Numbered from the stretch's first letter, positions 39,215 through 59,639 are shown. The stretch is 64,000 bases of DNA from Rhodospirillales bacterium (GCA_020638335.1 JACKIT010000007.1:45-64044), one strand, 5' to 3'. The notes: a model not told the origin generated them from the sequence alone. Made by a program: numbers and translations.

Positions 39215-40690
39215 ATGCTAAAGCGGATCATGCCTTTTTTTCTTTTCTTTCTACCGATTATGATTCTAGCCCTTACGCTTGCTCCCCCTCTTTGGGCCAG
39301 TCAGGATAGTTCTTCACCTTCGTCTTTATCAGCCGTGACACATCCGGCAGCGCTCCTTTGTCTGGTTGTTTTCATTTTGTCTTATATTGCGGTATTGATG
39401 GAAGAATATACCCATATGCGAAAATCCAAACCCGTGATGCTTGGGGCGGGATTGATCTGGGTGATTATCGGGGTGATCGCCCCCTCTTATGGTGTCGATC
39501 ACGATACCCTTCATAGCGCGATTTTTCACGGGCTGGAGGAATATGCTAGCCTGCTGCTCTTCCTTCTGGCCGCGATGACCTATATCAGCGCACTGGAAGA
39601 GCGCAATGTTTTTGCAGTGCTAAAATGCAAGCTGGTGCAGGCCGGTTTTAATTACCGACAACTTTTTTGGGCCACAGGCATTATGGCGTTTTTTCTATCC
39701 CCCGTTGCAGATAACCTAACCACAGCGCTGGTTTTAGGGGCTGTGGTTATGGCTGTAGGGAATGGTAATCCGCGTTTTGTAGCATTAGCCTGTATCAATA
39801 TTGTTTGCGCAGCCAATGCCGGCGGGGCCTTTAGTCCGTTTGGAGACATCACGACACTGATGGTCTGGCAGTCCGGGCATCTAGGTTTTTTTGAATTCTT
39901 TGATCTGTTTTTGCCCTCCTTTGTGTGTTTTGTGGTTCCCGCATTTATCATGGCATTTTTTGTTACCAAAGATTTCCCTGAGGCTTTAACGGAAGACGTA
40001 CACCTTAAGCACGGTGCACGAGCAATCATAGGGCTGGGAATATTCACGATCTTCATGGCTGTTGGTTTTGAACAAACGCTTGGTCTGCCGCCCTTTGTGG
40101 GCATGATGTTCGGCCTGTCCTTCCTGATGATCGCCGCCTATGTTATTCGGCATATATGGGTTAAAGACGAAGATGACAAGGATTTTGATATTCTGGAGAA
40201 TGTGGCGGCCGCTGAATGGGACACGCTCCTCTTTTTCTTCGGCGTTATTTTTTCCGTCGGGGGGCTGACCTTTCTTGGATATATGGAACTGGCCTCGACG
40301 ACAATGTATGACGGTTTTGGCGCAAGTATAACAAATGTGACACTGGGCATTTCTTCCGCCGTTATTGATAATATTCCGGTGATGTTTGCCGTGCTGAGCA
40401 TGAACCCGGATATGGACCATTTCCAATGGCTGCTGATTACCCTGACCACTGGCGTAGGCGGCAGCCTGCTTTCTATCGGTTCAGCCGCCGGTGTGGCGCT
40501 GATGGGTGTGGCGCGCGGGCATTACACCTTTATGAGCCATTTGCGCTGGGCGCCTGTTATTCTTCTGGGATACGCGGGCGCGATCGGCGTGCATTTCCTT
40601 ATCAATGCTCACCTGATGGGAGTCTCAATCCATGATGAGCCGCTTGAAACAAGTGTGAGTATAGAAATGCCGACAACGCCAGCGCATTAG
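39215..40690 (+). CDS. nhaD: Na+/H+ antiporter NhaD-type
   Basis: A polytopic membrane protein with the paired ADNLTTALV and IDNIPVMFAVL motifs seen in NhaD antiporters. Confidence 0.8.
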   Translation: MLKRIMPFFLFFLPIMILALTLAPPLWASQDSSSPSSLSAVTHPAALLCLVVFILSYIAVLMEEYTHMRKSKPVMLGAGLIWVIIGVIAPSYGVDHDTLHSAIFHGLEEYASLLLFLLAAMTYISALEERNVFAVLKCKLVQAGFNYRQLFWATGIMAFFLSPVADNLTTALVLGAVVMAVGNGNPRFVALACINIVCAANAGGAFSPFGDITTLMVWQSGHLGFFEFFDLFLPSFVCFVVPAFIMAFFVTKDFPEALTEDVHLKHGARAIIGLGIFTIFMAVGFEQTLGLPPFVGMMFGLSFLMIAAYVIRHIWVKDEDDKDFDILENVAAAEWDTLLFFFGVIFSVGGLTFLGYMELASTTMYDGFGASITNVTLGISSAVIDNIPVMFAVLSMNPDMDHFQWLLITLTTGVGGSLLSIGSAAGVALMGVARGHYTFMSHLRWAPVILLGYAGAIGVHFLINAHLMGVSIHDEPLETSVSIEMPTTPAH

Positions 40691-41208
40691 TGCTGGCTAT
40701 TCCAGAATATGGTTTCCGGCGGGATGAGTTTTTTATCCTCACTGCGTTTGTAGACGTAAATACCCAACACGGAAAGACCGACGGCCCAGATAGCGCTGAG
40801 TGACGACATAGATGACATTATGTATCCGGCACGTTGCGTATCGAATATTATAACATAGGCTATCCCCAGCATTTGCGCGGCCCAGGTGATAGCCATCAGG
40901 TAGCCAAAGGTTGGGCGCATACGGCGAACATATTTGTCAGAGGAAGCGATTTCGGCCCGAAGCGATTCATTAATTTGTTTAGAAGCTTCGCGGTATTCCT
41001 CTGATTTCATTAAAGAAATCGCTTCTATATGCCGATTTGATTCCGCTATGGCTTCTGGCGAAATATCTCCTGCTTTCAAGGCTTTATCAACATCCTCTAA
41101 AGCTTTTGCTGCACCTTTTGTAACGGGCGTGTCGATCTGCTTTAAAGCCTGTGATACAAAGGTGATGAGCAGCGGCAGGCCGATACGGGCGAGTATAGTT
41201 TCTAGCAT
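40687..41208 (-). CDS. Phage holin, 3-TM type (resembles the Pfam GTA_holin_3TM / DUF3154 architecture)
   Basis: A soluble N-terminal helical part, then ASSDKYVRRMRPTFGYLMAITWAAQ followed by TM helices. This is similar to the AASS..FV...RPF.GW motif of 3-TM holins as I recall it. It is adjacent to the endolysin. Confidence 0.6.
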   Translation of the reverse strand: MLETILARIGLPLLITFVSQALKQIDTPVTKGAAKALEDVDKALKAGDISPEAIAESNRHIEAISLMKSEEYREASKQINESLRAEIASSDKYVRRMRPTFGYLMAITWAAQMLGIAYVIIFDTQRAGYIMSSMSSLSAIWAVGLSVLGIYVYKRSEDKKLIPPETIFWNSQH

Positions 41209-41232
41209 AACTTCTTCCTTAATATTTTTTAA

Positions 41233-41336
41233 AACTACAGTGCGTACAGGGGAATACACAGGGGCGTCTTTTTATCGTCAAACGCTCCTGTGCTTCTTCT
41301 GTGTTCTTCTGTGTTCTTCTGTGTTCTTCTGTGGTT
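41233..41336. repeat. Family-2 hairpin element, including a 10-bp tandem repeat (TCTGTGTTCT x ~4.5 at 41289..41334)
   Basis: aactacagtgcgtacaggggaatacacagggg ... tcctgtgcttcttctgtgttcttctgtgttcttctgtgttcttctgtgg. The arms are inverted CACAG/CTGTG-rich sequences. Confidence 0.7.
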
Positions 41337-41343
41337 TTTATTT

Positions 41344-41835
41344 TTAAGTTTTGATTAATTTGTAAAATATATGCCGCCCGATTACGGCCGAGGGTTCCTG
41401 TCCCCGCGCCCAGTAGGGCGAGGCATAATCGGTGTGGTAATGCGTTGCGCCACCGGTATGATCCGGCAGTGCGCCAATAACTGCGCGGCGGGCAATGCGC
41501 AGGGCAGTCGCAAAATACAGGTTTTTATTATCGACGGCCTGTAATTTCTGAAAATTCGGGTCGGAGCGATTCCAGCATGAGAATTGATACGGTTTTTGAC
41601 AGACCTGAATGATATTGCTGCCCCACCAATATTTGCCGCCGTGGCCTTGCGCGACTTTCACACGGTTGAGCACGACACTGGCGACGGCTTCCATGCCAAT
41701 ATGTCCTTCGCTGCGGGCTTCACCCCAGAGGGTGCGGGCCAGAACATCAATTTCAAGGGCTTGGTAAAATTCTTCGGCGTCGGCACGCGGACGCACGTCC
41801 AAACCGCCAATCGCGGTTAAGGTTGGTTTTTTCAT
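41344..41835 (-). CDS. Cell-wall hydrolase, SleB/CwlJ (Hydrolase_2) type; putative endolysin
   Basis: LARTLWGEARSEGHIGMEAVASVVLNRV...PYQFSCWN...ATHYH matches the Hydrolase_2 family pattern. Confidence 0.8.
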   Translation of the reverse strand: MKKPTLTAIGGLDVRPRADAEEFYQALEIDVLARTLWGEARSEGHIGMEAVASVVLNRVKVAQGHGGKYWWGSNIIQVCQKPYQFSCWNRSDPNFQKLQAVDNKNLYFATALRIARRAVIGALPDHTGGATHYHTDYASPYWARGQEPSAVIGRHIFYKLIKT

Positions 41836-41860
41836 GAGTTTCTTCCTTTGCAAAAATAAA

Positions 41861-41940
41861 AACACAGTGAGCACAGAAGAAGCACAGGCGCTTTTCGTAC
41901 GAAAAAATGCTCCTGTGTTTTCACTGTGAGTCTCTGTGAT
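41861..41940. repeat. Family-2 hairpin element
   Basis: The arm aacacagtgagcacagaagaagcacagg and the arm cctgtgttttcactgtgagtctctgtg are inverted around a ~22-nt centre. Confidence 0.65.
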
Positions 41941-41950
41941 TTAAAATGAA

Positions 41951-42271
41951 TTATTCAGATTTAGCCTTCAGCGCTTCGGCTTTGAGAGCGGTGGCATCGA
42001 GCTTGGATTCGATGCGTAGCAAATGCTCGACCAGCCGGGATTCCAGCGCATGCATGGATCTTTGCGATGCATATGTCTTTGCGACTTCAAGCTTGAACGC
42101 GCCGAGCGCATCGCGGAGCTGATCCGAACGATGTTCCAGCGTATGTTCCAGGTTATTGACGGCCCTTTCAGCCTCGCGGCGCGTCCGCCAAGAGAAAGCC
42201 AAAAGGCCGGCCATGGCCGGCAAATCAACAACCGTGATCCACCAGACCAGATCTTGTGAGAATAAGCTCAT
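41951..42271 (-). CDS. Membrane-anchored coiled-coil protein (i-spanin-like or lysis accessory)
   Basis: N-terminal TM helix (VWWITVVDLPAMAGLLAF) followed by a ~70-aa heptad-like helix. It lies between TerL and the endolysin. Confidence 0.45.
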   Translation of the reverse strand: MSLFSQDLVWWITVVDLPAMAGLLAFSWRTRREAERAVNNLEHTLEHRSDQLRDALGAFKLEVAKTYASQRSMHALESRLVEHLLRIESKLDATALKAEALKAKSE

Positions 42272-42283
42272 GTAACATGTCCT

Positions 42284-43801
42284 TTATATTTTGAAATCCG
42301 TATCAGCCTTATGAAGCCGGGCGGATTTCATCCAGTTATGCGCGCCGCGGCCATAGAGGCGTGGAAGGCGGTCCGGGGCCTGGGCGAGCGCGCCGGCGAC
42401 GGCGTCGAGGCCATCGTCATATCCTTTATTGCTTCCGGGACGCCATTCACGCATTTCGGTCATAAAAAGCGTTTTCAGCACTGATATATGCACATAGAGC
42501 CGGCGAGCGGCGAGCACGGCATCGAAAGCTTCAAGAATGCGTAGATCCTTGGCACGGGACTGGCTGATTTCCTTAAGTGCGCACGGGGATTTAGCCCGGC
42601 TAAGTTCATTGCGCAGGATATTGGGCAGAAACCGTCCGATGCCGTTGATCTCGACCGTCATGGCGGGCAGGTAATGGTTTTTAGCAATCTGCGAAACGAT
42701 GCGGCATTGTTGAGTTGCTTCGTCCTGTTCATTACCAGCGTCGGTGCGAATATATTCGATGTGATGAAGGTAGAAATTCCCCTCCGCATCGCTGAATAAA
42801 ATGGCCACAACGCTGTGGTCGCCGGTAGCGCTGCCGAAAGACGGGTCCCAAAAGGCGCTGGCAGAAACCAGTTTGATCTGACCAAGAAACAAAGTTTGCA
42901 GTTCTTTGCAATACTCCAGATCATCATCATAATGGCGCAACAAGTCAGGATTGAGACGACCTTCGGCGATATTTACGGGCTGGAGCATCATTTGAGATGC
43001 AAATTTATTCGGCCCGGCGGCGCGCTTCATGCGAGCGATGTCGGCCTCGCTATAGCGCTCAATCCAGGCACTTTGGCCCTTTTCATCCAAAACCGGGATT
43101 TTGAGGCGTTCAAATCCGTTTAGGAATTCCCTCTCCTCTCCCAGTTCACTCCGCGGTTTATCGGCGTAAATCGTGTGGTAATTATGCGGCGTACCAACAT
43201 AGATCTGCGTTCCACCGGGGACGAGAACATATTCCATCTCGCCCAGCCGTTCGCGCAGCTCGCGGCGCTTTTCGGCGGTGTCGCAGGTGTTGGGGACCTC
43301 GACATCGTCGCAGATGACAATATCGGCGCGGGAGCCGGTGATGTTAGCCGTAATGCCTTTGGCCATCATGGAAGGATCGCGCGATTCGAAAGTGCGTTTG
43401 ATGGTAAAACGATCAGAAGCCCATTGGTCCGCATTTTCGGGTTTCATATTTGCGGTCAGCGGGTGGCGCTCGATAATGCGTTTAACGTTGCGCACCATCT
43501 TTTTCGCCAGCGTGAAATCCGCTGCCAGCACAAGGATACGCAAATCCGCCTTGCGATATAAAAGCCAGGCCGAAAACAGGCCCGCGATCGTGCTTTTGCC
43601 TGCGCTGCGAAAAGCCATCAAGAGAAGCCGCGTGTTTTTGCGACTCCAGTTCCATTCCAGCCAACGCGCTATTTTCAGGTGGATTTGCGGCGTGCGCAGG
43701 CCCATGCGCTGGTTCCACAACACCACAAAGAGCGGGAAGTCGGCTGTGCTGATGTCGAATTTCGTGCTTTGCAGGCTGGGTGGTTTTGCGATTTCGTTCA
43801 T
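42284..43801 (-). CDS. Terminase large subunit
   Basis: Walker A-like FRSAGKST, Walker B ADIVICDDVE, a C-terminal nuclease-like part, and a size of 505 aa. The upstream small gene is coupled to it by an ATGA overlap. Confidence 0.85.
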   Translation of the reverse strand: MNEIAKPPSLQSTKFDISTADFPLFVVLWNQRMGLRTPQIHLKIARWLEWNWSRKNTRLLLMAFRSAGKSTIAGLFSAWLLYRKADLRILVLAADFTLAKKMVRNVKRIIERHPLTANMKPENADQWASDRFTIKRTFESRDPSMMAKGITANITGSRADIVICDDVEVPNTCDTAEKRRELRERLGEMEYVLVPGGTQIYVGTPHNYHTIYADKPRSELGEEREFLNGFERLKIPVLDEKGQSAWIERYSEADIARMKRAAGPNKFASQMMLQPVNIAEGRLNPDLLRHYDDDLEYCKELQTLFLGQIKLVSASAFWDPSFGSATGDHSVVAILFSDAEGNFYLHHIEYIRTDAGNEQDEATQQCRIVSQIAKNHYLPAMTVEINGIGRFLPNILRNELSRAKSPCALKEISQSRAKDLRILEAFDAVLAARRLYVHISVLKTLFMTEMREWRPGSNKGYDDGLDAVAGALAQAPDRLPRLYGRGAHNWMKSARLHKADTDFKI

Positions 43802-44124
43802 TCATTGTCCTCCTCCAGTTCATCACGGGCGCTGCGGATCTGGGATTGCAGGTTTTCCTGCTGTTCGCGCCTGGCCTCGATTTTTTCCTGCTCATCACTG
43901 TCATCGGTGGCGTTGGCCAGTTTGAGCAAGCTTTCGAGATGGGAGGCGGCGGATTTTCCGGCATCGTGGAATTTTTTGAATTCGGCAGGCTCTTTTGACT
44001 TGTCCTCTAGATCGCCGGGTAAATCACTGCTGAGATAACGTTCGTAGGAATACACCACCGCCGCCGTGGCGCTGTTGAGAAAGTGTGCCACGCGCTCTTT
44101 GATAATTTTTGTATAGTTTTTCAT
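43798..44124 (-). CDS. Putative terminase small subunit (108 aa, acidic C-terminus)
   Basis: Assigned by position (overlaps the TerL start by 4 nt) and by its strong AAGGAGA Shine-Dalgarno sequence. No sequence-level recognition. Confidence 0.4.
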   Translation of the reverse strand: MKNYTKIIKERVAHFLNSATAAVVYSYERYLSSDLPGDLEDKSKEPAEFKKFHDAGKSAASHLESLLKLANATDDSDEQEKIEARREQQENLQSQIRSARDELEEDNE

Positions 44125-44208: not shown

Positions 44209-44703
44209 CTATGTCTGATACCTGACTTCCGTATCGAAACATTTAACTAACAGCTGTTTAGCCATTTTACGGTCATGCGTTTTGAGTCCTTCAGACTCAC
44301 TGCCAACCATTACAACATCGCAATGTGCCCAATTATCGTTCCGTGGCGTGTGATGAACATCGAAATGCATTCCCTTGTGCCGTTCCAGTTCCCTGATACG
44401 GCCAACATTCGCGCTTCTGTAACCATAATAATGATCCGGCTTGAAGTCCTTTTTCCCCGACCGGCGTTCATTCCTTGCTTTGCATAGTTTTCGCCCCTGC
44501 GCATGACAAGCCGCAACCGCATCGCCTTTAAATAAACGCATACAATTGACGGACTCTTCCCGCAAACCCGTTTCTTTGTTTTTGTTGAACTGCAAGTTAT
44601 TCAGAAGATCAAGCTGCGGAATACCAAGAACCGAAGAAAAATCCTTAGGGGATAAAATTGTCCGGCTAATGATATCCTTATCGCGGATTTTTTGTTTTTC
44701 CAT
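44209..44703 (-). CDS. Cargo gene 3: hypothetical protein (164 aa), His/Cys-rich C-terminal half
   Basis: ORF. HYYGYRSANVGRIRELERHKGMHFDVHHTPRNDNWAHCDVV. Overlaps the upstream gene by 26 nt. AT-rich. Confidence 0.55.
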   Translation of the reverse strand: MEKQKIRDKDIISRTILSPKDFSSVLGIPQLDLLNNLQFNKNKETGLREESVNCMRLFKGDAVAACHAQGRKLCKARNERRSGKKDFKPDHYYGYRSANVGRIRELERHKGMHFDVHHTPRNDNWAHCDVVMVGSESEGLKTHDRKMAKQLLVKCFDTEVRYQT

Positions 44704-45172
44704 GTTTTTTCACAGGATAAGAAGGGAGATGCCGCCGGATGTCCTCAGGGAAAAAACCGCCTGCCAAAAATTTTAATTCCGCCAAGTCTTCGATAGTGTC
44801 ATCCGTACCCAGTTTGCTTAAATAAATATATAGACCGTCGATCGTCATGTGCAGTTCATCGCTGGCTTTCAAAATCCATGTCAATGAAAGCGTCTCTTCC
44901 ATATCCGGCGAAATTTTGTCCGGATATGCCAGACCGAACGGCAGTTGTTTGATAAAATGCTCCGCCGTTTGCAAACTGGCATGACCAGGTGCAGACGCAC
45001 CAAACCCGTCCCAACCGTCTTCCAGACCTCTCATATACTCGATTGCTTTCAACAACTCTCCACGCTCTTTCGGCGTGACAGCCCCTTCCTCAAGCGTTGT
45101 TTGAGGTGGCTTAGGCGGCATAGGCGTATCTGTAACTGCGAAGCCGTTTTGCTCCCTATTTAGCGCGTACAT
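44678..45172 (-). CDS. Cargo gene 2: hypothetical protein (164 aa from the second Met) with an LEDGWDGFGA motif
   Basis: ORF. GGGGA lies 5-6 nt upstream of the ATG at 45172. Overlaps the upstream gene by 17 nt. Confidence 0.55.
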   Translation of the reverse strand: MYALNREQNGFAVTDTPMPPKPPQTTLEEGAVTPKERGELLKAIEYMRGLEDGWDGFGASAPGHASLQTAEHFIKQLPFGLAYPDKISPDMEETLSLTWILKASDELHMTIDGLYIYLSKLGTDDTIEDLAELKFLAGGFFPEDIRRHLPSYPVKKHGKTKNPR

Positions 45173-45974
45173 CTTTTCCCCACTTTTCATGCATTTCCGG
45201 CGTGGTTAAATCGTCGAATCCGCAAACAATATGCTCATGAGCTTTATTATACCATGATAACATGGTTTTCATATTCTTGTCGAAAGGCGATGCATACTGC
45301 CCTCTGACAACAATATCCAGACGCGAGGCATGTGTTCCATCTTTCAGATTTTGCACAGAATAAGCATTTGTAAACATCCTGCCGTTCAGGTCCGGCAGTT
45401 CGAACTCCCAGCTTCCGCTGTATTTGGACGGCTCCGGCAAAAAGACTCGCTCTTTCCGCCAGACCGCATCTTTCAGGAAAGCGCCTATATTCGGCGCACC
45501 GCCAAAATCATCAAAAGGAACGATGTTTACATATATCAATTCCAGCGTATCGTAAGATAGCGGTTTCTTATGAAGTTTTACAAATTTTTCCAATGCCTTA
45601 AGCGTCTGTTCAAATTTTTCAATAACAGACTTATAACGAGGATAAGGCTTATCATTAACCCTCCTCCAGTTAAACGCCAGCCTGTCCTGCTGAAACTGGA
45701 TCAATTCGGTTTGATCTTCACTTAAAAACCAAACCCGTGGGATTTCACACGAGGGATCGACAAAAGAAATAACCCTTTCTTTTTCACTCCCCGGCATCGG
45801 CGCTATAACTTCCTGATTTTGAACATTTGGAAATTCATCCCGCCCAAATGCCGCCCATAAATCTCCCAAATAGGGTGCCGGAAAACCGTGCAGATCAGAA
45901 AACTGTACAGCAACCGCCACTTCAGAAACCGGAGGGCTTTTATAATCGGGCAAAGATGGTTTTATTTTTGTCAT
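45156..45974 (-). CDS. Cargo gene 1: TIGR04255-family protein
   Basis: The N-terminus YKSPPVSEVAVAVQF and a size of ~270 aa fit the TIGR04255 signature as I recall it. Confidence 0.6.
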   Translation of the reverse strand: MTKIKPSLPDYKSPPVSEVAVAVQFSDLHGFPAPYLGDLWAAFGRDEFPNVQNQEVIAPMPGSEKERVISFVDPSCEIPRVWFLSEDQTELIQFQQDRLAFNWRRVNDKPYPRYKSVIEKFEQTLKALEKFVKLHKKPLSYDTLELIYVNIVPFDDFGGAPNIGAFLKDAVWRKERVFLPEPSKYSGSWEFELPDLNGRMFTNAYSVQNLKDGTHASRLDIVVRGQYASPFDKNMKTMLSWYNKAHEHIVCGFDDLTTPEMHEKWGKDVRAK

Positions 45975-46042
45975 GGCATAATGGGCAGTTTCAAGGTGAT
46001 TGTAACACAATGCTGATGTAATTCTATACCATCAATTCGCGG

Positions 46043-49526: not shown

Positions 49527-49724
49527 ATGTCTAAAGAACTTTATGCAGCTGTTGAAGGTTTAGAGCCTGGCCAGACCTTTTCCCAGGTAGCCACGAACGC
49601 ACCAAAAACCTCATGGGACTATCATTCTGGCAGTTCTTTTTCGCCAACAGACAATCCTTTGAGATCTGTTTCTCAGGATGATGACGGACGTCTTGTCATT
49701 GCACATCCTGGCCTCCGCCATTAA
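49527..49724 (+). CDS. Small hypothetical protein (65 aa) antisense to the cluster's direction
   Basis: ORF with upstream agagag and a candidate promoter. Confidence 0.4.
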   Translation: MSKELYAAVEGLEPGQTFSQVATNAPKTSWDYHSGSSFSPTDNPLRSVSQDDDGRLVIAHPGLRH

Positions 49725-51790: not shown

Positions 51791-52165
51791 TCAATACTGA
51801 AAAGGCCCAGGTAGACATGGAGAATGTTCTGTAGCTTCCTGACCATCTTTTGCGGGTTTAACTCCCCTGCATTCCGATTTTAACATTCTCTCAAGAAGTT
51901 CTATGCCAACTTTAGGAGGCCAATTATCGGATGCTTTCAACTCACCAATTCTTTTTACGACTTGTCGTTCAATCTCTGATTGTGCATCATGCACTCTTTG
52001 GCATGCCTCATTTTCCGCAGCCGATCCTCCTGTGCAAGGGGTAAATTGTCTGGATAGATGGTTTCCTTTGGCGCTGCCATCGTTAGCCTGATCTTGAGCC
52101 AAAGCTGCGCTTGTACCAAGTGTCAACGTGGCTGTTAAAATTGCATTTCTCAAAAAATGCGCCAT
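51791..52165 (-). CDS. Hypothetical secreted Cys-containing protein (124 aa)
   Basis: GGAGAG Shine-Dalgarno sequence and signal peptide MAHFLRNAILTATLTLGTSAALA. Confidence 0.55.
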   Translation of the reverse strand: MAHFLRNAILTATLTLGTSAALAQDQANDGSAKGNHLSRQFTPCTGGSAAENEACQRVHDAQSEIERQVVKRIGELKASDNWPPKVGIELLERMLKSECRGVKPAKDGQEATEHSPCLPGPFQY

Positions 52166-52231
52166 TACGCTCTCCGTGCTGTTTATTACGATGAGGCACG
52201 CTAGCACATATGAAGCACGAAGTCAATAATT

Positions 52232-52361
52232 ATGTTAAATTATTATCCCCGTAATCAACAAGCGTGAAGCTTTCGATTTTGTTGGGGGTGTCTTGCTGCA
52301 CATCGATTTGGCGGGCGCGTTGGAATTCCTGATCGGCGATGCGGAAATGTGCTTCGGCGCG
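52232..52361 (-). pseudogene. Remnant of a second tail tubular A gene 3' end (diverged duplicate of 52677..52784)
   Basis: An ungapped hand alignment of 52254..52361 against 52677..52784 (offset 423) gives 9 mismatches in 108 nt. The frame is retained to its own TAA (...LVDYGDNNLT*). The upstream side is cut off by a family-1 repeat fragment at 52362. Confidence 0.75.
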
Positions 52362-52461
52362 ACAATCCATCTCTGGATTGCTTCGGCAATAAAAATCTCT
52401 GTCCTAAGGGAGCAATGCTTGACTTTTTGCCCCTTAATCCTTTATCTGTGAAGTCCGTTGA

Positions 52462-52537
52462 AGGGGTATAGCTCAGTTGGTAGAGCGACGGTCTCCAAAA
52501 CCGTAGGTCGCGGGTTCAAGTCCTGCTGCCCCTGCCA
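52462..52537 (+). tRNA. trnW: tRNA-Trp (anticodon CCA)
   Basis: Folded by hand: acceptor AGGGGTA/TGCCCCT, D arm GCTC-AGTTGGTA-GAGC, anticodon arm ACGGT-CTCCAAA-ACCGT, variable loop AGGTC, T arm GCGGG-TTCAAGT-CCTGC, discriminator G, encoded CCA. Total 76 nt. Confidence 0.95.
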
Positions 52538-52664: not shown

Positions 52665-53234
52665 TCAATCCCGCACATCAACAAGGGTAAAGCTTTCGAT
52701 TTTGTTGGGGGTGTCTTGCTGGGCGTCGATCTGGCGGGCGCGCTGGAATTCCTGATCGGCGATGCGGAAATGCGCCTCGGCGCGGGATGTGCTTTCCGTC
52801 ACGGGAATTGTAAATTCCGCCGATAGCCTTGCGATGAGCGCCTGATCAAAAAACGGTGGAAATTCGCTTTCATCAGGGAGAAAAACATAGGTGAGCACAA
52901 CGGCGCTGGCGTTGGTGTGCAGCACGCCGTTGGCGATGCGGTAGTTAAGGCCGCGCCCTTTTGTGCCTGTTCCGGCGCTGATGGCGCGCAGATAATCGTT
53001 GGGCAGGCCGAAGGCGAAACTGTAATCGGCGATGGGGGCTGTGCTTAGCTGGGTCAATGCGACCTGGCCGGTGGCGAAGGTCCACGGATAAGCCGAGAGC
53101 AGGCCATCGCGCACAGGGGCATAGAGCGCGCCGGCAATTTCGGATTCGGCTGTGCCGTCGTCAAAGGAAGTGATTGGCGCGGCGCCAATTCTTATAAGTG
53201 CGCGCGAAGCCAGCGCGACATCATTGAGAGCCAT
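52665..53234 (-). CDS. Tail tubular protein A (T7 gp11-like), 189 aa
   Basis: LNDVALASRALIRIGAAPITSFDDGTAESEIAGALYAPVRDGLLSAYPWTFA parallels T7 gp11 [46 protein letters not shown] (from memory). The size also matches. Confidence 0.75.
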   Translation of the reverse strand: MALNDVALASRALIRIGAAPITSFDDGTAESEIAGALYAPVRDGLLSAYPWTFATGQVALTQLSTAPIADYSFAFGLPNDYLRAISAGTGTKGRGLNYRIANGVLHTNASAVVLTYVFLPDESEFPPFFDQALIARLSAEFTIPVTESTSRAEAHFRIADQEFQRARQIDAQQDTPNKIESFTLVDVRD

Positions 53235-53323: not shown

Positions 53324-53569
53324 AGTGAAGTGGTTTGCAAAGGTGGGGCAGCCCCGCCTTGCCGTGAAGAGGAAAGGCAAGAGCGTGGACTGCACCCTTG
53401 CGAAGCAAGTCCAGAGTATTTGTTCGCGTCTAAAAGAAACGAACAAAATATCCGGTTTTGCTTCACGATCGATACTTCCTGAAACTCACTAAAGCCGGGC
53501 TTGGCGAGCGTCTTTGTGCAAGCCGGAAACGGCTAGCGCTCAAAGCCTTAAGCAGTGATTCCCTTATCC

Positions 53570-53635
53570 GGCATCCCGGATCTGGTCCGGGATCTCTCCT
53601 TTTTTGGATGAGATCCCCGCTTTCGCGGGGATGCT
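53570..53635. repeat. 66-bp double-hairpin module, copy 1
   Basis: ggcatcccgga-tctgg-tccgggat ... gatccccgc-tttc-gcggggatgct. It has the same length and the same ends as 53949..54014. Confidence 0.7.
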
Positions 53636-53683: not shown

Positions 53684-53923
53684 TTACACATAGGCTGCGA
53701 TCGTGACACTGCCGCCGGAATTGGCCGTAACGACGTAAAATTTCGTTACCGGGGTTCCATCAGTATCGACATTCGCGATGATCAAATCATTCACACGCAG
53801 CATGTCGGAAGCCTTGTCAAAGTAAGATGCTACCGTGACATCGGCGTCAATGGTGACATAGTGCCAAAGTGTGAAGTTGTTGGCGTACGCAAGCACGCTC
53901 AAATCAGATGCTGTAAAAGCCAT
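53684..53923 (-). CDS. Small conserved-looking phage protein (79 aa) downstream of the capsid gene
   Basis: MAFTASDLSVLAYANNFTLWHYVT.... Assigned by position. The start is taken at the internal Met, outside the repeat. Confidence 0.5.
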   Translation of the reverse strand: MAFTASDLSVLAYANNFTLWHYVTIDADVTVASYFDKASDMLRVNDLIIANVDTDGTPVTKFYVVTANSGGSVTIAAYV

Positions 53924-53948
53924 TGTTTTGTTCCTTTCAAAAGTAGCT

Positions 53949-54014
53949 GGCATCCCGGACTCGATCCGGGATTTTATAGTTTTTGAAAAAGATCCCCGCT
54001 TTCGCGGGGATGCT
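53949..54014. repeat. 66-bp double-hairpin module, copy 2
   Basis: ggcatcccgga-ctcga-tccgggat ... gatccccgc-tttc-gcggggatgct. Confidence 0.7.
53980..54012 (-). terminator. Candidate intrinsic terminator or attenuator immediately after the major capsid gene
   Basis: On the minus strand: ATCCCCGC-GAAA-GCGGGGAT (GNRA loop) followed by CTTTTTC. It lies 14 nt after the capsid stop codon. Confidence 0.5.
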
Positions 54015-54025: not shown

Positions 54026-54859
54026 TTAGTCGGGTGTTTCATCACAATCGATGGTGATGATGCCGTTTTCGTCAATCAAACCTGCGCCCTGACTCATCAT
54101 GTTATTGACGAAGTGGGCGGCGCGGTCGCCATGCCACGAGACATCGGTTTCAACATCGCTGGCGGCAGCGTGACCGACGGAAGTTTTATGATACCAGAAG
54201 CAAGAGCGGATATCGTTGGCATCGACCGGCAAACCGGAATGCGGAATAAAGATTGTTCCGAGGAACATCTTGGCTTGTGTGATGGATGCAAATGGCAGCG
54301 CATCAGCACCGATGTAATCTGCGTTGACAAATTCATCGATGGCAAGCAATTCGCTCCATTGTTTCCAGCCGACGACACAGAAACGCTGGCCATCATCAGG
54401 TACATCTTTTTCACCGAAGGTTTCAAAAGCTTCGAGAATTTTATCCTTGGTCATGCCGACATTGCCATCAACGATGGTGCTGGCCGATGCGCTGGCCAAA
54501 GAATCGATGATCAGTTCATCGGTCTTACGACCCAGTGCGTTAGCACCGGCGCTGGCGATCACCTGACGTTCATCGATATTGACTTTGAGTTCATCAAGAC
54601 GGTCGATCCAGTCGCCTGCATAATAGTCCTGCAATGTGACTTCGACGTTGGAGTGATCCAAATTCATCACCGGCACCATGCCGTGGGTGGATTTGGTGGA
54701 GGCGGTGCCTTTGCCAATCTTTTGAAAGACTGCTGAGGAACCGTTGACATTGGAAATTGTGCGCACCGTGTTCCGTAATTTGGAACCCTGACGCTGGTAG
54801 GCTTCATGCACTTCGCGTTCGAATTGCTTGATGAAAGCCTGATCTATTGTTGTAGACAT
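54026..54859 (-). CDS. Major capsid protein (T7 gp10-like), 277 aa
   Basis: FEREVHEAYQRQGSKLRNTVRTISNVNGSSAVFQKIG parallels T7 gp10 FGGEVLTAFARTSVTTSRHMVRSISSGKSAQFPVLG (from memory). It also lies after the scaffold gene. Confidence 0.8.
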   Translation of the reverse strand: MSTTIDQAFIKQFEREVHEAYQRQGSKLRNTVRTISNVNGSSAVFQKIGKGTASTKSTHGMVPVMNLDHSNVEVTLQDYYAGDWIDRLDELKVNIDERQVIASAGANALGRKTDELIIDSLASASASTIVDGNVGMTKDKILEAFETFGEKDVPDDGQRFCVVGWKQWSELLAIDEFVNADYIGADALPFASITQAKMFLGTIFIPHSGLPVDANDIRSCFWYHKTSVGHAAASDVETDVSWHGDRAAHFVNNMMSQGAGLIDENGIITIDCDETPD

Positions 54860-55133: not shown

Positions 55134-55226
55134 TGCCATAATTATGTGGATACTAGGCACTGTATAGAATTGTAATTTTTACTAAAAACACTTAGACTGT
55201 GCGTTGAAAGAATGGGGATATAAAAA

Positions 55227-55619
55227 ATGTTTGGTCAATTATTTTCATCGCTTAAAGCTGGCAATAGTAACGAAGAGCAAAGTGTACGTAGACGTCATGC
55301 GCGCCGTGATTGTGATCGTTGCGTTACGGTTATCAACGGGCAAACTTATCCGGTTGAAAACTGGTCTTTAGGCGGCGTTCTTATCAGTTCTGACGAACGC
55401 CAGTTTGGCCTTGAGGATGAAGTGGGCGTAACGATGCGGTTTCGTTTACGGGACAATATTATTGATGTGCCTCATTCCGCCGAAGTTGTGCGCAAGACCA
55501 AAAACAAAGTGGCATTCCGATTCAAGCCGTTGACGCAGCAAATTCGCAGCAATTTTCAAAATGTCATTGACGATTACGTTGCTTCCCAGTTTGCAGCCTC
55601 GCAAAGTCAGTTTCGTTAG
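55227..55619 (+). CDS. PilZ-domain protein (c-di-GMP receptor type), opposite strand inside the structural module
   Basis: RRRHARR (RxxxR), then NWSLGG (D/N-x-S-x-x-G) about 20 residues later. Size 130 aa. Confidence 0.75.
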   Translation: MFGQLFSSLKAGNSNEEQSVRRRHARRDCDRCVTVINGQTYPVENWSLGGVLISSDERQFGLEDEVGVTMRFRLRDNIIDVPHSAEVVRKTKNKVAFRFKPLTQQIRSNFQNVIDDYVASQFAASQSQFR

Positions 55620-55630
55620 AATGAAGTAAT

Positions 55631-55708: not shown

Positions 55709-55722
55709 ACACTTGCTGTAAT

Positions 55723-56373
55723 TTATTCACCGTACATGTTCTTAAAGCCTTCTGTGACCCTGGCAACATATGCAGGGTCTTTATCGCGCCAGTATTTCGG
55801 GTCGCGCATCATGGATTGAAGATCCTGCTCGCCCAGCGCAGAAGGATTTTCGCTTTGCTTTTTGAGGCCCGGCTCTTCGGACTTCATCATTTTATAGAGC
55901 GCAAGCACACCTTCGTATGAACTGGAAAGATTCTCCAGCACATCGGCAGGAATATTTCTCTGGCCGAATGCCAGCAATTGTCGCGAGACTTCTTTCCATG
56001 CTTCAGGCCCGCCGAAATGATTCACGAGTTTTTCCACTTCGCGATCAGCACTAAAATCCGTGGCGACGGTTTTGATCATCGGCATCATTTTCTCTGCGGC
56101 CAGATCGTAGACCTCCTGCACCTGCTCCTGGGTCATACCTTTGGCGTGGAGACGCCGGTTCACTTCGCCGTCGGGTTCAAACAGGCCATGATCGCAATTC
56201 ACGCAATATTCTTCCGGTGATTTTGGCGCAGCCGGACCGGCGGACATTTTCTTTTCCAGTTCGGCGTAGGAATTAACCAGCGCATCCAGTCGGATCGCGC
56301 CGGTTTCGGGATTCTTGAATTTCTCCGGAATAATCGCCGGGTCAATATCTTCGATGAGTAGGTTTGTAGTCAT
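55723..56373 (-). CDS. Putative scaffolding protein (216 aa)
   Basis: Assigned by its position between the portal and capsid genes, its acidic helical composition and its size. No motif-level evidence. Confidence 0.55.
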   Translation of the reverse strand: MTTNLLIEDIDPAIIPEKFKNPETGAIRLDALVNSYAELEKKMSAGPAAPKSPEEYCVNCDHGLFEPDGEVNRRLHAKGMTQEQVQEVYDLAAEKMMPMIKTVATDFSADREVEKLVNHFGGPEAWKEVSRQLLAFGQRNIPADVLENLSSSYEGVLALYKMMKSEEPGLKKQSENPSALGEQDLQSMMRDPKYWRDKDPAYVARVTEGFKNMYGE

Positions 56374-56403
56374 GGTTTTGGTCTCCTATGTTTAAACTAC
56401 AGA

Positions 56404-56487
56404 GTGCGCAGAGACCGCAAAGAAAACACAAAGAATTTAATTATATATTCTCTGTGCGCTCTGCGGTCTCTGTAGTTGATTTTTCAT
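56404..56487. repeat. Family-2 hairpin element with perfect 10-bp termini AACTACAGAG / CTCTGTAGTT
   Basis: aaactacagagtgcgcagagaccgcaaagaaaacacaaagaa-tttaattatata-ttctctgtgcgctctgcggtctctgtagtt. Confidence 0.75.
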
Positions 56488-56780
56488 TGTGGCTTACGGC
56501 CACGATCGATGAGGCGCAAAATCGTGGCGACCATAGCGCGCTGGCCTTCAAGGTAGCGCAGTTGGTCGTCGCCTACGCCGGGGCCGAGCGCGCGCTGAAA
56601 GGTCACAACTTGCAAATGCGCCAGCACCTTTTGCCCGTCATCAGACGAAAAGAGGCGCGCGAAGGCTTTTTCGATTTCGCGCAGTTCGGTCTTGCCCGGT
56701 TCGGTCGGGGCATAAACCAGCCCCCGTTCAGCGGCGGTCATGGGCAGTGGGTCGGCTTTTTTGAAAATGTCAAATATCAT
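56484..56780 (-). CDS. Small phage protein (98 aa) translationally coupled to the portal gene
   Basis: ATGA overlap with the portal stop codon. It may be Bbp19-like (memory only, weak). Confidence 0.5.
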   Translation of the reverse strand: MIFDIFKKADPLPMTAAERGLVYAPTEPGKTELREIEKAFARLFSSDDGQKVLAHLQVVTFQRALGPGVGDDQLRYLEGQRAMVATILRLIDRGRKPQ

Positions 56781-58351
56781 GGTTGATCTCCTTGTTCGTG
56801 AGATGTTTTGTCAATGGCAGGCACGGCTTTAAGCACCTGTGATAAATCGAGCTCAGGGATGTCCTTGCGGATCAAATCATTCGGCACGCCGAGCGCATCG
56901 CCGAGAAAGCGCGCGGCTTGCGGCAGGTTGATCGCCGCGCTGGCTTCGGGGCCCATGGCCAATACAGAGCTGATCCAGCTCAGCGTATTTTGGACATTCT
57001 TTTGTCCTTGAGAGCGGGCCAGAGGCGAACGGTAATCCACTGCAACCAAACGACCATCAAGGGCGATATCGGGGATTTCACCGCGGCGCTTAAGGATCGC
57101 AAAGGCGCGTTTTATCAGCGGCGTGAGCAGTTCGGATTGCAGACGACCATAGGTCGCGCCGAGCAGTAACGACATTTCGGCGCTGCGCTCTAACACCTCG
57201 GTGGCAGTCATGCGCGGTGAGGCCACGGGGGCAAGTTTGTCGGCGAGCAGGGCATGACGGATGCGGGCTTGCAAACTATCGAGAACAAGCTGTGAGACAT
57301 CAAAGCGCCCCGGCATATCAAGGGGCTGCAATCCTTTAGAGCCAATTGCCTTGGGGATGATACTGCCGGGAGTGAGTTCGATATTGGCGGGGTTGAGCAC
57401 ACCATCATCGTCGGCTTGCCAAATGCCGGTGACGGCGATGGAGGCATTTTTGAGAATGAGTTCAACGACCTTATTGGCAGTTTTAATGTCGGGCAACGCT
57501 TTCATAATCGGTGAGCGGCCATAAATCTCGCCAGGGCTTTTCAGCCAGCGGAAAGAAATCATCGGCGATTGCTCAAACTTTCCAGCGCTGAGCAAGACAG
57601 GTTGATCGCCTTGTTCAATCAGGCAGGCATGGTAGCTGTAAATCAGCCCGTCAGGCAACACAGCTTCGAGAATTTTAAAACGCTCCTGCGGATCGCGAGC
57701 GGCGCGGCGGATAATTTCGGTGGGGAATTCAGAGGCCGGATAACGAGATTTAATTTGCTCCAGCGTGAGTTTCATCAACCGGAATGCACCGTCGAGATGG
57801 CCGTTATCGCCCTCTTCCAACACCACATGGGTGAGCGGCGTGGAGGAAAATTTAAAGGCTGAAAAACTGCCGGGCTGTGATTCCTCAAACACTAGCGAAG
57901 CGGTGCCGCCAACGATGAGGTCGAGATAGCATTGATGAATTTCGACGGCGAAGTTTGAGCGATCAAAATGATCCTGAATGGTCTTGGCTGCTTTTTCGAG
58001 TACAGGAGCAAGGCGTTCGGCCTCTTCATCACTCAATTCCGGTCCGGGCTTCAGCCCAAACCATTGCGACCAGGTCGGTGTCAAGTTACCAAGCATGGAA
58101 GAGGCCAGTTGATCGGCGGCATCCATGGCGGTGGCATCATAAATCTGATCGGTTTTGCTCTGCCCGGCCATTGGCTGGCTGGTAAAGCCGCCGCGCTGGG
58201 GAAGCGCGTAATTATAACACTCCTCCCACAGGCTTTCCCAGTTTGCGCGTTTCTTTTGCGCGGCATCAAAGCGATTTAATATAAGCGCCAACCGGGCCTG
58301 AATTTCTTCGGCTTCTAAAGGTTGGTCTTTTGTTGTTACAGTGTTTTGCAT
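56777..58351 (-). CDS. Portal (head-to-tail connector) protein, podovirus type, 524 aa
   Basis: Its size is close to T7 gp8, it is the first large gene of the structural block, and the N-terminus ..RANWESLWEECYNYALPQRG.. resembles other podoviral connectors. Confidence 0.75.
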   Translation of the reverse strand: MQNTVTTKDQPLEAEEIQARLALILNRFDAAQKKRANWESLWEECYNYALPQRGGFTSQPMAGQSKTDQIYDATAMDAADQLASSMLGNLTPTWSQWFGLKPGPELSDEEAERLAPVLEKAAKTIQDHFDRSNFAVEIHQCYLDLIVGGTASLVFEESQPGSFSAFKFSSTPLTHVVLEEGDNGHLDGAFRLMKLTLEQIKSRYPASEFPTEIIRRAARDPQERFKILEAVLPDGLIYSYHACLIEQGDQPVLLSAGKFEQSPMISFRWLKSPGEIYGRSPIMKALPDIKTANKVVELILKNASIAVTGIWQADDDGVLNPANIELTPGSIIPKAIGSKGLQPLDMPGRFDVSQLVLDSLQARIRHALLADKLAPVASPRMTATEVLERSAEMSLLLGATYGRLQSELLTPLIKRAFAILKRRGEIPDIALDGRLVAVDYRSPLARSQGQKNVQNTLSWISSVLAMGPEASAAINLPQAARFLGDALGVPNDLIRKDIPELDLSQVLKAVPAIDKTSHEQGDQP

Positions 58352-58367
58352 TGGTTAAGCCTCTTTC

Positions 58368-58634
58368 CTATTCGCCGAGCAAAGTTTTGCGCGGACTGCG
58401 ATCTTCGAGCGTGCTGAGCAGACCACGAAAGCCGGTAAGAACGGTGCCGAAACGGCTGCGTTCACGGCCCAAGAGATTTTGGGCGCGCACTTCCGATGCC
58501 GTTTCTACTGCGACAAGGTTTTCCGCACCGGTATTTTCGACGCTGCTTGTCGTGGTTGCGCTCATGGTTTGCGGAACATAGACAACTTGCGGCGTCGGCG
58601 TTGGCACACTTGGCCTTGAACTTAAACTTCCCAT
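58368..58634 (-). CDS. Small phage protein (88 aa from the internal Met), Ser/Thr/Pro-rich with a C-terminal ..TLLGE
   Basis: ORF. The start is taken at MGSLSSRPSVP. Confidence 0.4.
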   Translation of the reverse strand: MGSLSSRPSVPTPTPQVVYVPQTMSATTTSSVENTGAENLVAVETASEVRAQNLLGRERSRFGTVLTGFRGLLSTLEDRSPRKTLLGE

Positions 58635-59053
58635 GCTAAATCTCCTTTCGGGGTAAATGTCTGAATGGTTTGAATACGGTTTAAATAACGGTAAAGCTGC
58701 CAAGGCGTCAGGATCAGGCGCTGGTGAATCCCCAGCACACGTTTGACTGCCTCGACGCAGCTATAAACAGCGAAGGGCGCCGGGTGCGGCATGCGCTTAA
58801 TCGGTGCGGGCACAACCTTATGGCCACGATCTTTCATCCAGAGCGGCAGATCGAATTCCAGCGGCACGCGGTGGACAGTGATGTCGGTGTAATTCGACAG
58901 CGGATCAATGGTTATCCAGTTGTGGCCGTCATTCAGCAAAACTGCGCAATGACGAAAACCCGGTTTGAGTATTTTCAGCCATGCCAGATCGGCATGGCCG
59001 CTAAACATGACCCAGGCTTTGGTTGTGGTTTGTAATTCAGCATGCGAACTCAT
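58622..59053 (-). CDS. Hypothetical phage protein (143 aa) with a His/Cys pattern (possibly a papain-like or NlpC/P60-like fold)
   Basis: GFRHCAVLLNDGHNWITIDP ... YSCVEAVKRVLG. This is speculative. Confidence 0.4.
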   Translation of the reverse strand: MSSHAELQTTTKAWVMFSGHADLAWLKILKPGFRHCAVLLNDGHNWITIDPLSNYTDITVHRVPLEFDLPLWMKDRGHKVVPAPIKRMPHPAPFAVYSCVEAVKRVLGIHQRLILTPWQLYRYLNRIQTIQTFTPKGDLAWEV

Positions 59054-59502
59054 TGTACGGCGCCTTCTAAATTCAAATGATAATTCTCATAGAGCATGGC
59101 ATCTTGTGCCCAATTCCGGCTGGCGCTTGGCTCAGGCTTGATGATGCCTTTCTTTTCGAGAACTACGCCTATTCTCTCTAAAGCCTCATGCCAGAGCTGG
59201 AATGCGCGGGCTTCTTTGGCGCGGCGATCATCCGGCGCCAAATGCCGACGACCGTAATGGCGCAGCACCAGCAAATGATCACGCACTAAGCGCCGCTGGC
59301 GATACAGCCGGTCGAGCACTTTTAAAATATCGATCGGTTCACAGGGACGTGGGTACAGGCTTTGCCCGGCGACAAAACGTGCGCCGTCGGTGCGAGCTTC
59401 CTGCGCGGCGATAAACCAGAACCAGGCTTCTTCCGCATTGTGAAACGGTACAGTGTGCGAAGCGTTGCAGCCTTCTGTTTTTGTTTTATTTTCTGAATTC
59501 AT
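59050..59502 (-). CDS. First gene of the cluster: hypothetical, possible DNA-binding or regulatory protein (150 aa)
   Basis: The start is taken at MNSENKT, which has AAGGGGGG 8 nt upstream. It is Arg-rich and helical (LDRLYRQRRLVRDHLLVLRHYGRR). No family recognised. Confidence 0.5.
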   Translation of the reverse strand: MNSENKTKTEGCNASHTVPFHNAEEAWFWFIAAQEARTDGARFVAGQSLYPRPCEPIDILKVLDRLYRQRRLVRDHLLVLRHYGRRHLAPDDRRAKEARAFQLWHEALERIGVVLEKKGIIKPEPSASRNWAQDAMLYENYHLNLEGAVQ

Positions 59503-59589
59503 CTGTATTCCCCCCTTAATTTTAGATACATTTGTTCCCTTTATGTTCTCGTTTGTGCTATAAATTTTGTTATGAGTCAAGAATAAAAT

Positions 59590-59603
59590 AAGAATTTATT
59601 CCT
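59590..59603. promoter_or_regulatory. 14-bp palindromic motif AAGAATTTATTCCT in the divergent control region (candidate operator)
   Basis: It lies between the divergently oriented 150-aa gene and the HTH gene. It is related to 55063..55076. Confidence 0.35.
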
Positions 59604-59639
59604 ATTTATTTTTGTGCGCGCAAATGGGACTATTGTCCT

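Follow-up and report, generated by a model that had tools for sequence, protein, structure and literature searches.

What use can a bacterium have for the head, tail, packaging and lysis genes of a short-tailed phage, when none of the genes around them would let a phage replicate or integrate? The question is raised by a stretch of 64,000 nucleotides from a Rhodospirillales bacterium (JACKIT010000007.1:45-64044), here called the window, in which such a cluster, henceforth the element, occupies positions 40687-59639. Our answer is that we are probably dealing with a domesticated, chromosomally fixed particle locus of T7-like (podovirus) type, a candidate gene transfer agent (GTA) of a new structural type. 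A sequence-only reading of the window had already preferred domestication to the slow decay of a prophage, and every deciding test that can be computed favours the same choice.

Particle genes of T7 type in a host chromosome

The element is about 19 kb long and nearly all its genes lie on the minus strand. It is bounded by a gene for a CitMHS/NhaD-type transporter (39215-40690, plus strand) and by the open reading frame (ORF) that contains pyrE (59640-60572, plus strand), while the other ~40 kb of the window are made of housekeeping genes (lepA, acnA, icd, metC, a sigma factor gene and others). ORFs of at least 85 amino acids (aa), in the block and its flanks, were scanned against Pfam, PHROG and PADLOC, and several of the large proteins were compared with profiles of Protein Data Bank (PDB) entries. 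All the large head, tail, packaging and lysis ORFs that the sequence-only reading had named on the minus strand are present, and the profiles back its T7-like assignments of portal, scaffold, capsid, tubular proteins A and B, fibre and terminase, together with the housekeeping character of both flanks. Two entries need amendment: tubular protein B had been given 662 aa and has 632, starting at M31, and of the terminase pair the large subunit stands while the small one is placed by its position alone. The particle and lysis genes, with those embedded among them, are as follows, in the order of transcription.

56777-58351, minus: portal, the head-to-tail connector, T7 gp8 type (PF12236, 2.7e-146; phrog_332)
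56484-56780, minus: Bbp19-like small phage protein (PF25181, 6e-16)
55723-56373, minus: scaffold, T7 capsid assembly protein type (PF05396, 1e-13)
55227-55619, plus: PilZ-domain gene, receptor of cyclic di-GMP (c-di-GMP), between scaffold and capsid (PF07238, 6e-9)
54026-54859, minus: major capsid protein (PF19821, 7e-82; phrog_3437; PDB 9eg4, 1e-28; ratio of nonsynonymous to synonymous substitutions, dN/dS, 0.054)
53684-53953, minus: u89, small protein after the capsid, conserved in all lineages (likely start M11; phrog_18004, 3e-12)
52665-53234, minus: tubular protein A, the tail adaptor (phrog_394, 8.5e-42)
49721-51619, minus: tubular protein B, the tail nozzle, 632 aa (phrog_376, 5e-147; PDB 8ck1 'Tail Nozzle', 4e-73)
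48817-49335, minus: probable gp14-like internal virion protein (PF24072, 5e-4, below the curated cut-off)
46043-48064, minus: tailspike, with a podophage (T7 gp17)-type N-terminal adaptor and a pectate-lyase-like beta-helix (PF12708, phrog_1640, PDB 28lx/8ck1, 9efk)
43798-44124, minus: putative small terminase, by position only, weakly conserved (phrog_31793, function unknown)
42284-43801, minus: large terminase, T7 type (phrog_38, 9e-86; best PDB match T7 gp19, 4bij, 5e-24; also 8dgc)
41951-42271, minus: i-spanin-like protein (phrog_29007, 1.5e-25; N-terminal transmembrane segment and coiled coil read from the sequence)
41344-41874, minus: SleB-type cell-wall hydrolase, the endolysin (PF07486, 8e-20)
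40687-41259, minus: holin with three transmembrane segments (PF11351, GTA_holin_3TM, 1.6e-9; phrog_3427)

Portal, scaffold, HK97-fold capsid, tubular protein A, nozzle and gp17-type fibre adaptor, standing in the order of T7, form a T7-like structural module, and the large terminase is of T7 type as well. With the gp14-like protein and the tailspike they make up a gene set for a DNA-filled short-tailed particle, and holin, SleB endolysin and i-spanin-like protein one for its release by lysis; all three lysis genes had been spotted in the sequence-only reading and each is recovered by a profile. The gp14-like gene lies after the nozzle, as in T7, and five of 20 orthologues match PF24072 (best 3e-5).

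No polymerase, primase, helicase, RNA polymerase, integrase or excisionase came out of the scans of the block, in agreement with the sequence-only reading, and the remaining 40 kb of the window yielded no polymerase, primase, RNA polymerase, integrase or excisionase either. A flanking direct repeat of att type was looked for around the cluster and none was found. Neither the window nor the related loci described below hold an autonomous T7-like phage (Autographivirales), which would bring its own RNA polymerase and replication genes. Nor is the element an intact temperate prophage, as it has no integrase and no flanking direct repeat, and occupies the same site in all relatives examined. Particle genes that reside in a host chromosome without genes for replication, integration or excision are what is expected of a GTA.

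Inheritance with the host, under purifying selection

The element is inherited vertically with its host lineage and is under purifying selection, as GTAs are. Against the closest genome (L173, nozzle 90% identical), 18 concatenated core genes (4423 codons) gave dN 0.115, dS 1.05 and dN/dS 0.11, a sign of purifying selection and far from the value near 1 that the sequence-only reading had held to be incompatible with domestication; for single genes the ratio ranges from 0.035 to 0.24. The flanking genes nhaD1/2, HTH-pyrE (HTH, helix-turn-helix), nadK and purC (1639 codons) gave, in the same comparison, dN 0.079, dS 1.12 and dN/dS 0.07. Equal dS in cluster and flanks is as co-inheritance predicts. 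Between species representatives the proteins are 65-92% identical and the proportion of synonymous differences (pS) is ~0.75, that is, saturated; because of this saturation few pairs among the 80 loci mapped are usable for pairwise dN/dS, and the closest genome was used instead. Over 19 genomes, the distance between core proteins is 0.93 times that between flanking housekeeping proteins (r = 0.61).

The genes have also stayed whole. Among orthologues of the large genes (54-80 per gene), mid-gene stops were met only twice, in tubular protein B of L033 and in the portal of L037, so that the intact ORFs noted in the sequence-only reading are the rule in relatives too. Codon usage of the core is host-like, with a correlation of relative synonymous codon usage (RSCU) of r = 0.90 against 0.94 for host genes versus host genes. 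The tailspike, normally the fastest-changing gene of a phage, is conserved end to end in 60 genomes.

A family of loci in alphaproteobacteria

A genome scan using one genome per species returned 514 stretches confirmed by tblastn, the best 80 of which were mapped; the loci examined came from ~160 contigs and are labelled L followed by a number. The best 80 of the 514 are all of Micavibrio/Micavibrionales type, with tubular protein B 65-86% identical to that of the window, and they include the complete chromosome of Micavibrio aeruginosavorus HCB189. We note in passing that NCBI files Micavibrio under Bdellovibrionota, and that records L022, L025, L044 and L078 appear as Pseudobdellovibrionaceae, Bdellovibrionales, Rhodospirillales or Alphaproteobacteria bacterium. 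At least 120 relatives of the nozzle have 74-90% identity, nearly all of them 626-632 aa long and many on contigs of 0.2-2.4 Mb. The comparison of synteny that the sequence-only reading had suggested gave a simple result: ~80 species-representative Micavibrionales genomes have the cluster in the same place, with collinear genes. That reading had also named two observations that would speak for a phage, namely absence from close relatives and presence within a complete phage. Neither was made, the cluster being at the same site in all relatives examined and no examined locus from the ~160 contigs sitting inside a complete phage with replication or integration genes.

The order common to the mapped loci runs from the repressor through u176, u143, u111, portal, Bbp19, scaffold, PilZ, capsid and u89 to tubular protein A, tubular protein B, gp14-like protein, tailspike, the putative small terminase, large terminase, spanin, SleB and holin. 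All 11 marker genes are present in 31 of the 46 loci that are 21 kb or longer; from u176 to holin the cluster measures 14.1-21.4 kb (median 16.0 kb). Differences between loci are limited to a few intergenic slots, which hold unrelated cargo. The right flank is pyrE, nadK and purC in most loci, and the transporter flank is found in several. The neighbours of the ARL-13 cluster of M. aeruginosavorus (GMV_1830-1848) are, as in the window, icd/NhaA on one side and S24 repressor (GMV_1849)/pyrE/nadK/purC on the other.

The family reaches beyond Micavibrionales. In the IMG/VR database the cluster is repeatedly present as 'viral' contigs of 17-18 kb cut from isolate genomes; these are from the 3-Mb chromosomes of Azospirillum (brasilense, baldaniorum Sp245, argentinense, rugosum, canadense and others) and Skermanella. 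The gene order is the same, repressor, u176 and u143 included, and the nozzle has 56-62% identity. An exhaustive search with the nozzle revealed a continuum of proteins of ~630-645 aa at 32-58% identity. Where the contexts of these distant nozzles were sampled, the clusters are again compact, have host genes around them and contain no genes for replication or integration. One of them, L170, which has an S24 repressor and the full gene set, shares its right flank (DUF952, pyrD, EAL) with Azospirillum Sp245. The closest cultured phages, HTVC010P-type pelagiphages and Yersinia phages YeP4-6, have nozzles of 30-35% identity.

In one metagenome-assembled genome (MAG), SJ137 (L167/L168, contig JADLAT010000017.1), the cluster exists as two intact halves ~70 kb apart, each among host genes: the first comprises pyrE, u176, u143, u111, portal and scaffold, the second PilZ and everything from capsid through holin. 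The split, noted also for L165 and L051, is at the PilZ point. Parts ~70 kb apart cannot be carried together by a single head. Such a split would be fatal to a phage, while a gene set owned by the host can survive it, as the dispersed genes of the gene transfer agent RcGTA illustrate. In another MAG, OFTM66, the whole cluster is present twice, as diverged copies on separate contigs (L004, L006), both of which have a pyrE flank of their own; the binning has most likely merged two strains.

A phage switch joined to host genes

Evidence on the control of the element comes from a phage-type repressor, from embedded PilZ or GGDEF-EAL genes and, in the clade of the window, from the fusion of the repressor to PyrE. 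Two features of the window bear on it.

59640-59867, plus: Cro/C1-type HTH of the divergent repressor (PF13443; weak SinR-type PDB match; 58-84% identity in alignment)
59503-59639, no strand: AT-rich control region separating the divergent repressor gene from u176, read from the sequence, with GAATAAA-N7-TTTATTC

The sequence-only reading had taken pyrE for a plain host gene. Its first ~76 codons in fact encode a Cro/C1-type HTH. This is the cluster's divergent repressor, and it continues in frame into PyrE, which makes up ~59898-60572 of the ORF 59640-60572. There is no stop between the two parts in 11 genomes (the window, L001, L002, L007, L008, L011, L024, L032, L165, L167 and L173), and in these the HTH part has a proportion of nonsynonymous differences (pN) of 0.15 against a saturated pS of 0.74. 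The HTH part is therefore translated and constrained. The same HTH forms the N-terminus of a divergently transcribed repressor adjoining the cluster in every lineage examined, at 58-84% identity across Micavibrionales, Azospirillum and Skermanella. In Azospirillum (L106:115-747) it is followed by a canonical S24/LexA self-cleavage domain (GDSMDP...K); in M. aeruginosavorus (L076:2537-3181) the S24-like part, annotated as 'peptidase S24', is degenerate. A crude palindrome scan of 18 loci gave no shared operator between repressor and u176.

What could PyrE bring to a repressor? Bacillus subtilis PurR is an HTH protein with a domain of phosphoribosyltransferase fold that senses phosphoribosyl pyrophosphate (PRPP). 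Both proteins join an HTH to a type I phosphoribosyltransferase fold. The HTH of the window is, unlike that of PurR, of phage cI/Cro type, and it is joined to what looks like a complete PyrE, encoded beside nadK and purC. By analogy, the fusion may couple the switch to the level of PRPP or orotate; that a ligand might control DNA binding by HTH-PyrE is pure conjecture.

Early genes, c-di-GMP genes and expression

Upstream of the portal, the operon begins with three conserved genes.

59050-59502, minus: u176, conserved helical protein encoded at the head of the operon (the ORF runs to 59580; likely start ATG at 59502)
58622-59053, minus: u143, with invariant R-H-C, D50 and C99 in alignments
58368-58634, minus: u111, small Ser/Thr/Pro-rich protein upstream of the portal, conserved in Micavibrionales

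None of the 986 homologues of u176 has a Pfam domain, and the gene is present in all lineages except L172. Its AlphaFold model (pLDDT 82) has five helices; it gave no significant match in PDB or BFVD, and PDB sequence profiles gave nothing usable for this protein or for u143. A weak BFVD match to a DUF6456 protein of Roseobacter phage RDJL Phi 1 led to no relation with GafA: the comparison by hhalign with DUF6456 reached a probability of 0.13, and the idea of a GafA-like activator was rejected. As for u143, it has 1126 homologues, no Pfam domain, and is present in all lineages. Its model (pLDDT 81) had no significant match in PDB or BFVD, and scattered weak matches to Cys hydrolases; it is possibly a cysteine hydrolase. 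A Pro/Ala-rich counterpart stands at the position of u111 in Azospirillum.

The PilZ gene is found in 45 of the 46 Micavibrionales loci of at least 21 kb. In Azospirillum the same slot between scaffold and capsid (L106:4904-7288) holds a HAMP-PAS-GGDEF-EAL gene and a PRC-barrel gene. Two lineages have therefore placed c-di-GMP components at one point of the operon, which look like independent links.

Is any of this expressed? The sequence-only reading had called for expression data, and RNA-seq values for attack and attachment phases, tabulated in a supplement to the genome paper of M. aeruginosavorus ARL-13, give part of an answer: repressor and PilZ are transcribed, the late genes are silent in both growth phases. 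In figures (attack/attachment), the repressor is at 1.5/2.2, PilZ at 1.3/9.1 and an RlpA-like cargo gene at 1/10.6, and the early half of the cluster is at 0.2-1.2 in the attachment phase. Such values are those of a repressed element in which genes of host type are read independently.

Inserts, hairpins and repeats

Several features of the window are additions to the common gene set.

52245-52537, no strand: lineage-specific insert in the slot between tubular proteins A and B, a 117-nt duplicate of the 3' end of tubular protein A (52245-52361) followed by a tRNA-Trp gene
52462-52537, plus: tRNA-Trp(CCA), a real tRNA gene inside the cluster
51791-52207, minus: cargo ORF u138, secreted-looking, low GC at third codon positions, absent from the sister genome L173
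48281-48736, minus: cargo ORF u151, set apart by composition (GC 0.36)
44209-46010, minus: three cargo ORFs of 284, 170 and 164 aa, no Pfam, PHROG or PADLOC match
53992-54011, minus: strong terminator-like hairpin directly after the capsid gene

The tRNA gene was considered as an attachment site, an explanation that was rejected: there is no integrase, and among 55 other Micavibrionales loci scanned a tRNA-Trp lies in the cluster of one only (L031), in a different slot. We read it as a lineage-specific insert. The five cargo ORFs have GC 0.36-0.47, no family match and an RSCU correlation with host genes of r = 0.38; they are absent from L173, and the three-gene set was seen, besides the window, in L026 only. 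They were considered as defence genes and discarded as such, given that PADLOC, Pfam and PHROG returned no match.

The sequence of the capsid hairpin has a second copy at 53612-53633, read on the plus strand and hence not in the same orientation. It is part of a 71-nt double-hairpin element whose two copies (53565-53635 and 53944-54014, 79% identical) flank the small gene after the capsid; the second hairpin of the element is the terminator-like structure right behind the capsid stop, reminiscent of T7, which has a terminator after gene 10. Palindromes of the GTCATTGCGAGC type, resembling repetitive extragenic palindromic (REP) sequences, occur eight times in the window against 0.47 expected. 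Five are in gaps of the cluster between 51645 and 55708 (51645, 51702, 53258, 55631 and 55697) and the others at host loci (14511, 14835 and 29035), the 5' end of acnA among them. The sequence-only reading had described host repeats of this kind in the cluster and at two host genes; the cluster copies and the one at acnA stand, while purH, supposed to lie at ~14.5 kb, was not confirmed, the adjacent ORF having no Pfam match. Elsewhere, in the housekeeping part of the window, an ORF of 1674 aa (1895-6919) has no Pfam match.

How the element would work, and what else it might be

The gene set suggests a sequence of steps from release of the repressor to packaging, lysis and delivery. The divergent repressor of cI/LexA type would keep the operon off in most cells. 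As that of Azospirillum keeps an intact S24 self-cleavage domain, induction there is probably linked to RecA and the SOS response. In the clade of the window PyrE replaces the S24 domain, and would supply dimerisation and perhaps a link with the nucleotide pool; the embedded PilZ protein, or in Azospirillum the GGDEF-EAL protein in the same slot, would add an input from c-di-GMP. Derepression would turn on the early genes u176 and u143, then the structural genes. Since the element cannot excise or replicate, the terminase would fill heads in situ, from chromosomal DNA, before the cell lyses. Particles would attach to related cells through the conserved tailspike, and because gp15 and gp16 are lacking they would most likely carry DNA across the outer membrane only, leaving entry into the cytoplasm to the recipient. 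The comparison here is with RcGTA, where entry of DNA into the cytoplasm depends on uptake by the recipient. Taken to its full extent, this scenario makes the element an ancient podovirus-type GTA family spread over several alphaproteobacterial families, which has dispensed with gp15/gp16 in favour of recipient-dependent uptake, and whose cI switch was rewired via the PyrE fusion and embedded c-di-GMP components; we offer it tentatively, and would not quite give it an even chance.

A number of observations weigh against a GTA. Neither the window nor any other locus examined was found to have a gene of the size of gp15 or gp16 between nozzle and fibre, so that of the internal core and ejection set gp14, gp15 and gp16 only the weak gp14-like protein appears to be there, and delivery of DNA by the particles may fail altogether. 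The assignment of the small terminase is doubtful, and in Azospirillum its position is empty. The late genes of ARL-13 (capsid, tail, terminase, lysis) have an expression index of 0 to 0.1 in attack and attachment phases; this fits tight repression and is not a demonstration of activity. The correlation of co-divergence with the host, r = 0.61, is moderate. Some loci are incomplete or damaged: L171, from an abundant marine alphaproteobacterium, has a permuted cluster that lacks a fibre gene; from the L172 locus (Geminicoccaceae) both fibre and lysis genes are absent; in L165 the capsid-to-holin half is absent, PilZ being followed directly by icd; in A. baldaniorum Sp245 (L162, CP022253.1:750820-772715), L103, L117 and L118 the capsid is truncated and preceded by phage genes for an SLT-domain protein and a GH108 lysozyme, as a second prophage appears to have been inserted into the element in these strains. 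The heads of related phages hold about 35-40 kb; if that of the element did too, the whole cluster of 14-19 kb would fit, unlike the situation of classical GTAs. Finally, particles, packaged DNA and transfer are predicted from the genes, and random packaging of short DNA is a property of RcGTA.

Three other explanations have to be compared with this one. Could the locus be a cryptic prophage remnant, slowly decaying and without function for the host? Replication, integration and ejection genes are missing, the late genes are silent in the RNA-seq data, cargo genes, a tRNA and REP elements have been inserted, and some lineages show damage. This null is nevertheless contradicted by the selection data, and we do not regard it as tenable: dN/dS is 0.11 over 4423 codons at dS ~1, ORFs are intact in ~80 species after synonymous sites have saturated, insertions are confined to intergenic slots, and both halves of the split cluster are intact. 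A remnant kept fresh by recent horizontal spread meets the fact that no near-identical copies were seen in distant hosts. It is very unlikely, too, that we have before us a minimal temperate phage or helper-dependent element which is still mobile, integrates repeatedly near pyrE and borrows its replication and integration functions. The cI repressor of phage type, with an S24 domain in some lineages, would suit it, a capsid of normal T7-like size could hold the whole cluster, and many copies are filed as viral contigs in IMG/VR. What makes it improbable is that there is no integrase, excisionase or flanking att-type repeat, that dS of the cluster equals that of its flanks, that synteny on either side of the cluster extends from the window to M. 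aeruginosavorus, that codon usage is host-like, and that split and permuted versions sit among host genes.

The alternative that deserves more attention, unlikely as we think it to be, is a domesticated 'killer particle' comparable to PBSX. Such a particle would be produced and set free by lysis, maybe with host DNA inside, and would have been selected for binding and harming competitors or prey rather than for gene transfer. Obligate predators are among the hosts, the tailspike is a conserved protein of depolymerase type, and the ancestral repressor is of the SOS type found in PBSX-like elements. Loss of gp15/gp16, in every locus, fits periplasmic delivery with recipient uptake and equally a particle that delivers nothing, and a PBSX-like role therefore stays a live rival. 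Against it, terminase, portal and scaffold are conserved as well as the tail genes, which means that DNA-filled heads matter; a short tail of T7 type is equipped neither for contraction nor for depolarising membranes; and the element is kept in Azospirillum, which is not a predator. Domestication as a candidate GTA is the reading that we retain.

Relation to known particles

The element resembles RcGTA in several ways. Both consist of phage genes for heads, tails, packaging and lysis that are fixed in the chromosome without any for replication or integration; both have been passed on vertically, across orders, while purifying selection acted on them; and in both the genes can be scattered over several loci. 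RcGTA is linked to c-di-GMP signalling; a similar link would rest here on the embedded PilZ or GGDEF-EAL genes. The structural genes of RcGTA are unrelated, making a siphovirus-like HK97-type particle, whereas those of the element are of the short-tailed T7-like type. Control is different as well, by a divergent cI/LexA-type repressor here and by CtrA/GafA there. The element has neither RcGTA-like head-tail genes nor GafA/CtrA control, and the only families shared are those of the lysis genes (PF11351 holin and cell-wall hydrolase). PBSX of B. subtilis is likewise a fixed, repressor-controlled (SOS-linked) particle locus with lysis genes, whose particles cannot propagate; unlike the element it is contractile-tailed, belongs to Firmicutes, has unrelated genes, and kills rather than transfers.

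The relatives of the element among phages are T7, HTVC010P and YeP4-6, with the order portal, scaffold, capsid, tubular protein A, tubular protein B, internal protein, fibre, terminase, lysis, and with homologous portal, scaffold, nozzle, fibre adaptor and T7-type terminase. It differs from cultured T7-like podoviruses by a nozzle at most 35% identical to the closest of them, against 56-90% within its own family, by having no RNA polymerase, DNA polymerase, primase or proteins of gp15/gp16 size, and by its fixed chromosomal position with host flanks. To our knowledge, all well-studied GTAs are long-tailed or otherwise not T7-like.

The genome paper of M. aeruginosavorus calls that genome free of phage and mobile elements (PMC3189940), and a survey of GTAs reports only small clusters of RcGTA homologues in Micavibrio and Rhodospirillales (Shakya et al., PMC5721377). 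GTA-like particles with ~10 kb of random DNA are mentioned for some Azospirillum strains (Boyer et al., 2008, as cited in PMC3899980); their encoding locus has been assigned by similarity to RcGTA alone. Azospirillum genome papers describe strain-specific prophages and RcGTA-like regions, not this cluster. In the literature searched on GTAs and prophages of Micavibrio and Azospirillum we found no description of the element, which is, within these bounds, apparently undescribed; nor did the literature searched contain a T7-like or podoviral GTA, of which the sequence-only reading had been aware of none. What is new is the podovirus type of the particle locus and its distinctive control region.

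What the element may mean for its hosts

The element is not peculiar to one MAG. It is carried by ~80 species-level Micavibrionales, by the main chromosome of Azospirillum and by further alphaproteobacterial families. Cultured Micavibrionales are obligate epibiotic predators, while Azospirillum is cultivable and widely used in research on plant growth; M. aeruginosavorus and A. brasilense can both be grown, and the hypothesis is therefore directly testable. Of interest in themselves are a phage switch rewired to host signals, with its cI-type HTH-PyrE fusion and c-di-GMP genes in the same slot, and a cluster that is split yet intact. If the reading proposed here is true, a short-tailed GTA derived from a T7-like phage would represent a separate domestication event and widen the range of phages that cells can tame.

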